NCBI GenBank assembly: GCA_947259275.1
Contig: CAMYMH010000011.1
Span: 481 to 64,480 of the forward strand
DNA length: 64,000 nucleotides
Reading direction: 5' to 3'
Origin: an uncultured Acidimicrobiaceae bacterium
GTDB taxonomy: Bacteria > Actinomycetota > Acidimicrobiia > Spongiisociales > SHLN01
Shown: piece by piece, positions 42,088 to 42,555 of the stretch
Numbering within the stretch: the stretch's first letter is position 1
How the letters are laid out: each line of letters starts with the position of its first letter
Program-made: the position numbers and the translations under genes
The notes under the pieces: model-generated
Database searches by the model: none
Seen by the model: only the letters and a program-made list of their open reading frames with translations
What the model was told of the DNA's origin: nothing

Positions 42088-42119
42088 ACCGCAAACCGCC
42101 CACCGCCCACGGCCCACCG
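42088..42119. repeat. Heptamer array (ACCGCCC)x4, left flank of the four-helix-bundle gene
   Basis: accgcaa accgccc accgccc acggccc accg. Confidence 0.85.
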
Positions 42120-42160
42120 TGGGTCTTGAGGTGGAACGCGAGGTCTGATATCCAGCCCAG

Positions 42161-42520
42161 ATGCGCGACTTTCGGCGACTTCGGGTTTGGCAGCGGGCCC
42201 ACCAATTGACCTTGGACTGCTACCGCCTTACCGACTCATTTCCTCCGACAGAACGCTTTGGTCTCGTTTCGCAGATACGGCGATGTGCCAGCTCGATAGG
42301 TGCCAACATCGCCGAGGGTTGCGGGCGCGATACCAGTCGGGACTTCAGGCGGTTCATCTCAATCGCGGCCGGGTCCGTCACCGAACTTCGCAACCACTTG
42401 CTTCTGAGCCGTGATCTTGGGTTGCTGGATACGGCTGAATTCGGCCAGCTCGATCGCGATGCTGAGACTGTGAGGCGAATGCTTGCGGGCCTGATTACCA
42501 GGCCAGGCGATCGGCTCTGA
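42161..42520 (+). CDS. Four helix bundle protein (TIGR02436 / 23S rRNA IVP / Avd-like fold)
   Basis: 'FRRLRVWQRA', 'FPPTERFGLVSQIRR..SSIGANIAEG', 'RFISIAAGS..EL..HL..S.DLG'. Confidence 0.94.
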   Translation: MRDFRRLRVWQRAHQLTLDCYRLTDSFPPTERFGLVSQIRRCASSIGANIAEGCGRDTSRDFRRFISIAAGSVTELRNHLLLSRDLGLLDTAEFGQLDRDAETVRRMLAGLITRPGDRL

Positions 42521-42527
42521 CCCCTCA

Positions 42528-42555
42528 GCGGTCGGCGGTCGGCGGTGGGCGGTGG
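42528..42555. repeat. Heptamer array (GCGGTSG)x4, right flank of the four-helix-bundle gene
   Basis: gcggtcg gcggtcg gcggtgg gcggtgg; reverse complement of the left-flank family. Confidence 0.88.

Follow-up and report, generated by a model that had tools for sequence, protein, structure and literature searches.

The 64,000-nt window analysed here (the whole stretch of DNA, from an uncultured Acidimicrobiaceae bacterium) carries a four-helix-bundle (4HB) gene of family PF05635 bracketed by two tandem heptamer arrays in mutually inverted orientation, and this inverted-arm layout is the norm for the family across phyla and also occurs in a true rRNA IVS. We read the locus as an intergenic copy of an ORF-bearing IVS-type element, i.e., a self-promoted mobile cassette tied to genome-wide heptamer arrays in a manner resembling REPIN/RAYT systems. 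The cassette so defined spans approximately 470 bp and comprises a left array, a short leader that includes a predicted promoter, the PF05635 gene and a reverse-complement right array; we give the reading as a whole an even chance of being correct.

The gene (42161-42520, plus strand) encodes a basic protein of 119 amino acids (pI 10.35) that passes the curated cut-offs of both PF05635 (E = 3.5e-38; 130.5 bits against a cut-off of 33.8; residues 6-109) and TIGR02436 (125.3 bits against a cut-off of 24) across the full domain. Residues S45, N49, E52, G53 and R56 are invariant or nearly so in an alignment of 28 family proteins, and the protein carries the GxxRxxxSxxxNxxE pattern that is quoted as a conserved family motif in the accessible text of PMC3936711. 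Its nearest solved structure is 2GSC (XCC0516; E = 3.2e-19). The composition of the gene is foreign, with a GC3 of 0.65 versus 0.78 ± 0.055 in genes of similar size and a codon log-likelihood of -2.1. Upstream lies an ABC ATPase gene (aapP, PF00005; 41308-42063, plus strand), while a 175-aa ORF with a LAAC lipobox in its translation and no Pfam match (42566-43093, minus strand) is located downstream, convergent to the 4HB gene and adjoining lgt (PF01790). ORF coordinates and the PF05635 and TIGR02436 matches hence confirm the first-pass annotation of this DNA in describing a lone 119-aa 4HB gene between an ABC ATPase gene and a convergent lipoprotein gene.

The left arm (42088-42119, plus strand) comprises 3.6 clean tandem copies of ACCGCCC from 42095, as called by TRF, together with one degenerate unit from 42088, and was also found by a pattern match with 1-2 mismatches (C11:42568-42595). 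The right arm (42528-42557, plus strand) begins 8 nt past the 4HB stop codon and is a tandem (GCGGTSG)x4.3 that is reverse-complementary to the left arm; TRF called its unit as (GCGGTCG)x4.3 at 42528-42557. With at most one mismatch per unit between the two complements, the heptamer arrays initially reported to flank the gene are both present and mutually inverted, but their copy numbers by TRF are 3.6 and 4.3 rather than exactly four. The leader (42120-42160, plus strand) contains promoter-like elements recognized by sequence reading and conservation, namely a -35-like TTGAGG (42126-42131), a 17-nt spacer and an extended -10-like TG-A-TATCCA (42146-42154), with the start codon 6 nt further on. 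Across 71 4HB upstream regions in the order, a T-rich -35 column and a TGnTA -10 column recur at a fixed distance to the start codon. A sigma-70 consensus scan of the leader found no promoter, and the case for a leader promoter therefore rests on this conservation. The layout would predict a leaderless 4HB mRNA.

To place the locus among other genes, flanks were scored for inverted repeats. The window's 4HB gene had a score of 35, ranking 4 of 3498 predicted genes (median 15, 99th percentile 23). The gene calls used were those of a third caller with the 4HB gene entered by hand; two cruder callers missed both the 4HB and the lipoprotein genes. Scores of at least 24 were found for 50/69 4HB genes across the order compared with 14/548 controls (medians of 29 and 15, respectively), and for 61/80 4HB genes compared with 10/609 controls across at least seven phyla, where lag-7 periodic arms were present in 55 and 7, respectively. 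The proposal that the gene and its inverted heptamer arrays form a real unit is borne out by these counts: bracketing affects 72-76% of family genes versus 1.6-2.6% of controls, and the high-scoring control genes are mostly direct neighbours of a cassette. The density of period-7 arrays is 5.5 per kb up to a distance of 130 bp from 4HB genes and 0.08-0.12 per kb elsewhere in these loci. Family genes other than the window's thus do carry flanking arrays. The geometry is likewise regular, with about 40-60 nt between the left arm end and the start codon in the order (15-30 nt in other phyla) and a right arm that starts between -9 and +20 nt relative to the stop. Public examples of the layout include Nostoc edaphicum pNe_5 and a 4HB ORF within the 23S rRNA of Azospirillum lipoferum. 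Many 4HB matches were split or frameshifted.

Heptamer arrays are abundant in the window's genome (G000), where TRF detected 367 period-7 arrays in 3.85 Mb compared with 123, 136 and 130 for periods 8, 10 and 11, respectively. Only 13 of the 166 arrays with a score of at least 40 were located in coding DNA. The arrays fall into 98 canonical units, with ACCGCCC accounting for 73 of the 367, and the genome encodes just one intact 4HB gene together with a second, frameshifted copy. With so many unit families and a single intact 4HB gene, a code of one protein per unit is unlikely.

The gene is inherited along with its arm unit. The two co-vary (r = -0.435; 0/500 permutations as extreme), and the arm unit was common to 64.5% of protein pairs with at least 65% identity and to ~2% of pairs below 55%, although the proteins of G000 and G002 are 72% identical yet have unrelated arm units. 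The arm unit was also a dispersed repeat family of the host genome in 5/6 tests. For example, (ACCGCCC)x3 occurs 110 times in G000 and 86 times in G006, compared with 0, 6 and 1 times in G002, G001 and G004, respectively, while (GACAGCG)x3 occurs 257 times in G002 and 0-2 times in other genomes. Arrays are common where a genome has at least two family genes, whereas most genomes lacking the family have hardly any: 5/5 genomes with at least two PF05635 matches reached a density of 0.05 per kb, compared with 0/4 that had a single match and 1/8 that had no match. G004, which belongs to the same genus and lacks a 4HB gene, has almost no heptamer arrays and has compact array-free spacers at three ortholog sites. 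Exceptions occur in both directions. In G023, 84 kb contain 9 arrays and no 4HB gene is detectable even at E ≤ 1, while in G135, G042 and G079 a 4HB gene is present and 100 kb of sequence yields 0-1 arrays. The genomes analysed are MAGs, close relatives among them are not independent data points, and sample sizes are small.

The location of the gene differs between close relatives. Among eight congeners, the 4HB gene lies at the aapP/lipoprotein site in four (one inverted), at the lgt/SPFH site in three and at neither in one. The lgt/SPFH site is where the window itself has an inverted array pair devoid of a gene (43905-43996), and G005 has an empty aapP/lipoprotein junction of 92 bp. While the flanking aapP genes are 92-96% identical, identity among the 4HB proteins is 45-79%, and they represent at least four lineages. 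Across these congeners the cassette has been gained and lost, has changed orientation and has been replaced by distant lineages, all at intergenic hotspots, and the 4HB gene has no stable synteny with aapP. The earlier idea of a mobile cassette is partly supported, in that presence, site, orientation and lineage all vary among congeners. Two other explanations were rejected. Passage from one site to the other by an inversion that joins the right arm with the 43905 array would leave the gene of G006 in the opposite orientation to that observed, and species-specific rewriting of arrays at fixed positions conflicts with arrays that lie at differing points of one intergenic region in different species and are absent in other species.

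The inward-facing pair was first described as recurring without a gene at three sites. TRF recovered all three, but they do not share one unit. The pairs at 12944-13006 (19-nt loop) and 43905-43996 (between lgt and an SPFH gene) are of the ACCGCCC type, while that at 32632-32776 consists of (AGTCCCA)x5.3 and (CTTGGGT)x12.7, whose arms have one base difference per unit. The suggestion that such pairs are cassette derivatives or scars was partly sustained, as two of the three sites carry a 4HB gene in at least one congener. At the ortholog of 43905-43996, a 4HB cassette is present in G006 (79% identity, ACCGCCC unit), G003 and G005. The ortholog of 32632-32776 contains in G003 a 4HB gene truncated both 5' and 3', apparently caught midway from cassette to empty pair, and is a compact spacer without arrays in G004 and G001. 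Ortholog sites of 12944-13006 carry a 4HB gene in 0/7 congeners, with arrays of other units or at other positions in G006, G003 and G007 and none in G004, G001 and G002. However, the loop of the 43905-43996 pair is native intergenic sequence common to array-free congeners, and this pair is therefore not a simple excision scar or a unit insertion. Close array pairs in G000 also often join units without complementarity. Together with the native loop, this implies that many arrays are not decayed cassettes.

The layout recalls the ORF-bearing IVSs of 23S rRNA, which have also been reported for Leptospira. In Coxiella burnetii, the 23S rRNA IVS is described as an S23p-family ORF within a 28-bp terminal-inverted-repeat stem, with 2-3 tandem GACAGAT heptamers upstream of the start that vary in number by strain, and is regarded as a selfish element (accessible text of PMC4990558). 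S23p is PF05635, and the ORF in the loop of a terminal-inverted-repeat stem and the upstream heptamers have their counterparts in the window; the element, first proposed as undescribed, is thus not wholly so. The window's left and right arms likewise pair in minimum-free-energy and centroid RNA folds (z = -3.1), forming a terminal-inverted-repeat stem as in IVSs. We verified the IVS-like layout in the 23S rRNA IVS of Azospirillum lipoferum, where the arms are (GACRGAN)x5 and (NTCYGTC)x5 and the fold has a z of -9.66. In contrast to rRNA IVSs, the window's copy is intergenic rather than inserted in a 23S or 16S rRNA helix, with no Rfam match in 41000-44500 and ABC ATPase and lipoprotein genes as flanks. 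It further differs from the Coxiella IVS in having its own predicted promoter, full heptamer arrays as both arms, and an arm unit common to about 100 other loci of the genome.

RAYTs are single-copy HUH/Y1 transposase genes flanked by inverted copies of a dispersed repeat of the genome, and the associated REPIN repeats often form inverted intergenic pairs, are species-specific and are rare where the RAYT gene is missing. The cassette shares several of these traits, as its gene is flanked by inverted copies of a genome-dispersed and genome-specific repeat (ACCGCCC, with the three-unit windows counted above) that is scarce where the gene is missing. It differs from a RAYT in encoding a four-helix bundle rather than an HUH/Y1 transposase, and from REPINs, each built on one palindromic REP, in having tandem heptamer arrays of many unit families. 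We know of no catalytic activity for a PF05635 protein. Profile searches of the window's genome and four congeners found no match to Y1 transposase (Y1_Tnp, PF01797), ruling out a RAYT, or to reverse transcriptase (RVT_1), ruling out telomerase- or DGR-like templated addition. The cassette itself contains no recombinase, transposase or reverse transcriptase, and no target-site duplication was seen by eye at the outer arm edges; the absences first noted in this respect hold for the five genomes searched and the edges inspected. With neither a duplication visible by eye nor a transposase in the cassette, and with RVT_1 and Y1_Tnp as the profiles searched genome-wide, the locus does not qualify as a TIR transposon or MITE.

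A third parallel is found in the GGGAATC/GGGGAYT arrays (STRR) of cyanobacteria and Xanthomonas, which are intergenic, number hundreds of copies, include 70-75 convergent inverted heptamer pairs in Xanthomonas, differ in length and sequence between close relatives, and are of unexplained origin and function (accessible text of PMC4692102). The window's genome similarly has intergenic heptamer arrays in the hundreds as well as inverted pairs. The main text of PMC4692102 makes no link to PF05635, and the terms '0516', 'S23' and 'four helix' do not occur in it. Literature searches (covering few subscription journals and no supplements) returned no general link between PF05635 and inverted heptamer arrays, and heptamers were mentioned only in the Coxiella IVS paper.

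If the locus is a mobile, IVS-type cassette, its basic protein, a pentamer by homology, would be made from a leaderless mRNA. In host read-through transcripts, the arms would pair into a ~23-bp stem of the type cut by RNase III in the Coxiella IVS, and we propose that the insert would thereby be cut from the host RNA with little harm. At the DNA level, the cassette may represent the autonomous element, with gene-less array pairs and single arrays as its non-autonomous satellites, like RAYT and REPIN, and the protein may work in trans on the arrays. Matching arrays could let the gene shift between array-bearing sites in either orientation, via array recombination or a hairpin-directed step, and cassettes would decay through frameshift and truncation into empty pairs. 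Both the movement of the cassette and the action of the protein on arrays are inferred. One point against this scheme is that the cassette's own predicted transcript would begin at the start codon and thus lack the left arm.

Rather unlikely, in our view, is that the gene is a passenger on landing pads. Here, a host process (slippage and recombination) makes the arrays, a pair of inverted arrays offers a permissive intergenic site prone to recombination, and the 4HB gene, with a function elsewhere, is the commonest small cargo of such pairs, shuttling by homologous recombination in the arms. The match between the arms and the host's dispersed arrays fits such a process, and the use of both orientations and two neighbouring sites is what exchange between perfectly inverted arms predicts. 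Yet bracketing is highly specific to PF05635, at the frequencies given above, and even the top controls are mostly cassette neighbours. A few further G000 genes are also bracketed by inverted arrays, as a passenger would lead one to expect, but the arm geometry is fixed relative to the start and stop codons. The many unit families per genome with one gene, the arrays of G023 without a detectable 4HB gene, and the failure to find a mobility enzyme in the RVT_1 and Y1 searches are all readily accommodated. In contrast, co-variation of the unit with the protein across genomes and phyla, and the near absence of arrays in 7/8 gene-less genomes (one a congener) argue against landing pads of host origin, as does the presence of the layout inside rRNA, where no pre-existing landing pad is available.

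It is less probable still that the arms serve only as an RNA device. In this view they would form a stem for RNase III, or else a hairpin acting as terminator or insulator, by which the RNA of the cassette is processed or protected; periodicity would be a slippage by-product keeping the arms in register, and the other arrays would be independent bidirectional terminators or rut-like C-rich tracts. The predicted long-range stems of the window and the Azospirillum IVS, arms that hug the ORF, and the experimentally shown cleavage of the Coxiella IVS stem by RNase III (accessible text of PMC4990558) are consistent with this role. In 44/59 close pairs of G000, moreover, the left array is C-rich and the right one G-rich, and the reverse arrangement never occurs, so that a transcript entering from whichever side would first encounter a C-rich tract. 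However, many close pairs are non-complementary, and G.U is not in excess of A.C among the arm mismatches (49 versus 59; 69 versus 58). This leaves no signature of selection for a sense-strand RNA stem, and we do not claim such selection. The internal promoter predicts a transcript of the cassette's own without the left arm, and an RNA device leaves unexplained the genome-specific unit families at about 100 loci, the scarcity of arrays where the gene is missing, and the polymorphic sites and orientations. A related notion, that each unit holds a stop codon and the arrays stop all three frames, was dropped as not general: in the cross-phylum set, 44/49 downstream arms have stops in at least two frames, yet so do 23/49 upstream arms, and 17/35 downstream arms in the GC-rich order lack any stop.

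A DGR remnant, with the protein as an Avd accessory factor, is highly improbable. PF05635 is said to resemble Avd in the accessible text of PMC10053308, and the window's protein is of the same fold class, small and basic, but its similarity to the Avd profile is weak (NF033474; 16.4 bits and E = 0.0084, far under the cut-off of 80). The locus is also a single-gene cassette with no template/variable repeat pair seen and no neighbouring reverse transcriptase, RVT_1 being without a match in the window's genome and four congeners. That mostly intergenic arrays, frequent as they are in this genome, merely happen to flank a small gene, or that the annotation is an artefact, has a negligible probability and is refuted by the controls, the rank of the gene's flank score, the proportions of bracketed genes elsewhere, and the 4HB arms being the sole inverted pair among the 21 array pairs spaced 301-1000 bp.

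A broader proposal, which we advance tentatively and consider somewhat short of an even prospect, is that PF05635 proteins are the trans-acting partners of heptamer arrays, including STRR, the Xanthomonas GGGAATC arrays and those of the window. The bracketed gene would then be the autonomous member of a new gene-repeat symbiosis that relies on no known transposase, with the rRNA IVS as one special landing site. PF05635/TIGR02436 proteins are very widespread and have solved structures, while to our knowledge they have no assigned function. Nor do we know, after decades, of an accepted origin for rRNA IVSs, or of a mechanism behind the surplus of tandem heptamers in bacterial genomes. The data tie these three subjects into one testable system of an autonomous element and its satellites, and the partnership, if real, would account for the surplus of period-7 repeats that has long been noted in prokaryotic genomes. 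The scattering of 4HB genes among unrelated genes (e.g., in cas or restriction operons) would likewise be explained by their being insertions rather than functional partners. Nostoc and Azospirillum are tractable organisms that carry the layout, and plasmid-borne relatives of the window's protein are found mainly in Nostocales.

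The four-helix-bundle (4HB) gene of the window (42161-42520, + strand; 119 aa; PF05635, 130.5 bits; TIGR02436, 125.3 bits) is preceded by an ABC ATPase gene (41308-42063, +) and followed by a convergent lipoprotein-like ORF (42566-43093, -), beyond which lies lgt. It encodes a basic protein (pI 10.35) whose nearest solved relative is XCC0516 (2GSC; E 3.2e-19). The inward-facing heptamer arrays described in the first-pass annotation are present, but with 3.6 copies on the left (ACCGCCC, 42095-42119) and 4.3 on the right (GCGGTCG, 42528-42557; both by TRF) rather than four each, and are mutual reverse complements with at most one mismatch per unit. 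Composition of the gene is atypical for its source genome, G000 (3.85 Mb, 97 contigs, 64.7% GC; the window is C11:481-64480), with a GC3 of 0.65 (602 genes of 90-160 aa: 0.78 ± 0.055) and a codon log-likelihood of -2.1. The only other PF05635 match in G000 (C74:6746-7000; about 1420-1790 of locus L002) has no flanking heptamer arrays and, as read from the sequence, seems to be frameshifted by one base beyond the first helix. Elsewhere in the window, the ABC ATPase stop codon falls within a perfect 14-bp hairpin (42052-42082; CAGATCTTGTGAGC / GCTCACAAGATCTG) that is kept in congeners with compensating changes, and a 76-bp tandem repeat (21923-22110; 2.5 copies, 96% matches) adjoins an (AGCTGGT)x4 array.

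Of 151 genomes from the order Spongiisociales, 57 carry PF05635, and 69 loci around 72 full-length 4HB genes were taken for analysis. Flanks were scored by aligning the 120 nt upstream of each gene locally with the reverse complement of the 120 nt downstream, and the proposed enrichment of period-7 arrays at other PF05635 genes was borne out: scores of at least 24 were obtained for 50 of 69 testable 4HB genes versus 14 of 548 other genes at those loci. The same threshold was reached by 61 of 80 4HB genes versus 10 of 609 control ORFs in a cross-phylum sample (80 loci found by scanning species-representative genomes; Acidobacteriota, Chloroflexota, Planctomycetota, Gemmatimonadota, Proteobacteria, a CPR bacterium, and Bacteroidota). 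Most high-scoring control ORFs directly adjoin a cassette (left array, leader, 4HB gene, and reverse-complement right array). Within 130 bp of 4HB genes, period-7 arrays occurred at 5.5 per kb, compared with 0.08-0.12 per kb in the remainder of these loci. In the order, the arms consist mainly of period-7 arrays with a unit that varies by locus, and their geometry is fixed, the left arm ending 40-60 nt before the start codon and the right arm running from the stop codon or just after it. On Nostoc edaphicum plasmid pNe_5, a cassette sits between two ribonucleotide reductase genes. Cyanobacteria, mostly Nostocales (14 of 19), accounted for 17 of 19 plasmid records encoding relatives of the window protein; this group is the classic carrier of STRR heptamer repeats. 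In several Acidobacteriota (L093, L125, L127, L152), a TldD/PmbA-like gene adjoining the cassette is itself flanked by same-unit arrays, and L125 also holds a 165-aa ORF with no family assigned (7930-8424) that is bracketed in the 4HB manner.

Two neighbouring intergenic sites were compared across eight congeners (G000 to G007). The aapP/lipoprotein site holds a 4HB gene in G000, G001, and G002, and an inverted one in G007 and in G019, from another family. The empty site that the first-pass annotation had proposed to look for in relatives was found in G005, where the junction is 92 bp consisting of two arrays; G004 carries a different insert there (L006 2022-3297; 1.27 kb, coding-like, and internally repetitive). 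The lgt/SPFH site, which is a gene-less inverted array pair in the window (43905-43996), holds a 4HB gene in G003, G005, and G006, the last with 79% protein identity to that of the window and the same ACCGCCC arms. Congeners are 92-96% identical in aapP and 94-97% in SPFH but only 45-79% in their 4HB proteins, which form at least four lineages, some nearest to proteins from other phyla. The suggestion that gene-less pairs are derivatives or scars holds in part: at the ortholog of 32632-32776, G003 has a 4HB gene that has lost both ends and adjoins an array (G001 and G004 have compact spacers without arrays), whereas native sequence fills the loop at 43905-43996. For the third pair, 12944-13006, the orthologous site lacks a 4HB gene in every congener compared; three species have arrays of other units elsewhere in the spacer and three have none, so that each species gains its arrays independently.

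Three-unit patterns of six cassette arm units were counted in each cassette's own genome and in congeners, and in five of six tests the unit was abundant in the former and rare in the latter. Counts for ACCGCCC were 110 in G000, 86 in G006, 6 in G001, 1 in G004, and 0 in G002; for GACAGCG, 257 in G002 and 0-2 in others; for GGATGCC, 78 in G001, 42 in G006, and 29 in G000; and for CCTGGTT and TAGTCGT, 61 in G003 and 28 in G005, respectively, with 0 in others. The weak case was CCAGTCG (6 in G007 versus 28 in G000). For G004, in whose genome a 4HB gene was not detected, the six counts were 1, 0, 0, 0, 0, and 0. A reversed control pattern, (TGCTGAT)x3, matched 192 windows in G005 only, marking another genome-specific heptamer family. 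Protein identity was negatively correlated with arm-unit distance (r = -0.435; 0 of 500 permutations as extreme). Sampled in DNA away from 4HB genes, array density was 0.05-0.16 per kb in all five genomes with at least two family matches (G000, G025, G099, G102, G114) and 0-0.03 per kb in those with one (G019, G042, G079, G135). It was 0-0.022 per kb in seven of eight without a match (G004, G014, G027, G029, G030, G036, G037), although absence calls are soft in MAGs, as all relatives compared are, since G029 carries N-terminal 4HB fragments, one at a contig end. The exception was G023 (0.107 per kb), and because the genomes are few and related, the relationship is a trend only.

Seven is the outstanding non-triplet repeat period in G000 (TRF; 367 arrays versus 123, 136, and 130 at periods 8, 10, and 11; 217 versus 13, 36, and 77 at scores of at least 36), and coding DNA holds 13 of 166 arrays scoring at least 40. 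Heptamer arrays are thus common in this genome. Despite this abundance, the upstream-versus-downstream inverted-repeat score of the window gene ranks fourth among 3498 predicted G000 genes, and its arms are the sole inverted pair among 21 neighbouring-array pairs spaced 301-1000 bp apart. Of 59 close pairs (up to 100 bp apart), 44 have a C-rich left arm and a G-rich right arm (e.g., 32632-32776 and 12944-13006), and none has the opposite arrangement; many join different units, and the handedness holds even where the arms are unrelated. One dispersed family, (AGTCCCA)n, a CCAGAACGCG(Y)GATC-like loop, and (CTTGGGT)n, occurs at 32632-32776 and about 10 other loci (e.g., C2:82603-82696, C28:10749-10896, and C43:3935-4051). 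Its arms are systematically mismatched at one base per unit (T.T or A.A). AAGTCCC/AAGACCC pairs share a common loop (CCAGAACGCG...) and a fixed one-base non-complementarity.

In the order, 71 leaders share two columns placed at a fixed distance from the start codon, one T-rich (-35) and one TGnTA (extended -10), and the start codon follows the TGnTA motif by 8-9 nt; a self-promoted, leaderless mRNA is therefore predicted, although a generic sigma-70 scan did not call this promoter. Folding of 42064-42580 predicts pairing between the two window arms, which would pair likewise in read-through transcripts. Arm mismatches showed no G.U excess, so the complementarity more probably arose in DNA than through selection on RNA. 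Profile searches of G000 and four congeners found neither reverse transcriptase nor Y1 transposase. On these grounds, we favour a cassette of the type found as intervening sequences (IVS) in 23S rRNA. Such a cassette would be tolerated because the stem of its paired arms can be processed, and may spread or shuffle via its matching arrays, probably with the 4HB protein acting in trans. A less likely rival is that the 4HB gene is simply carried along by arrays of host origin. In Azospirillum lipoferum 4B, an unannotated 4HB ORF lies inside a plasmid-borne 23S rRNA gene (AZO_p2, NC_016586.1, about 14300-14850, L277; Rfam LSU, 896 bits), between arms of (GACRGAN)x5 and (NTCYGTC)x5 that form a stem of ~25 bp (fold z -9.66). 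A published account of the Coxiella IVS, whose gene belongs to the same 4HB family, describes heptamers (GACAGAT), a stem of 28 bp formed by inverted repeats, and cleavage by RNase III (PMC4990558); the Azospirillum unit resembles both this heptamer and the arm unit of congener G002 (GACAGCG).
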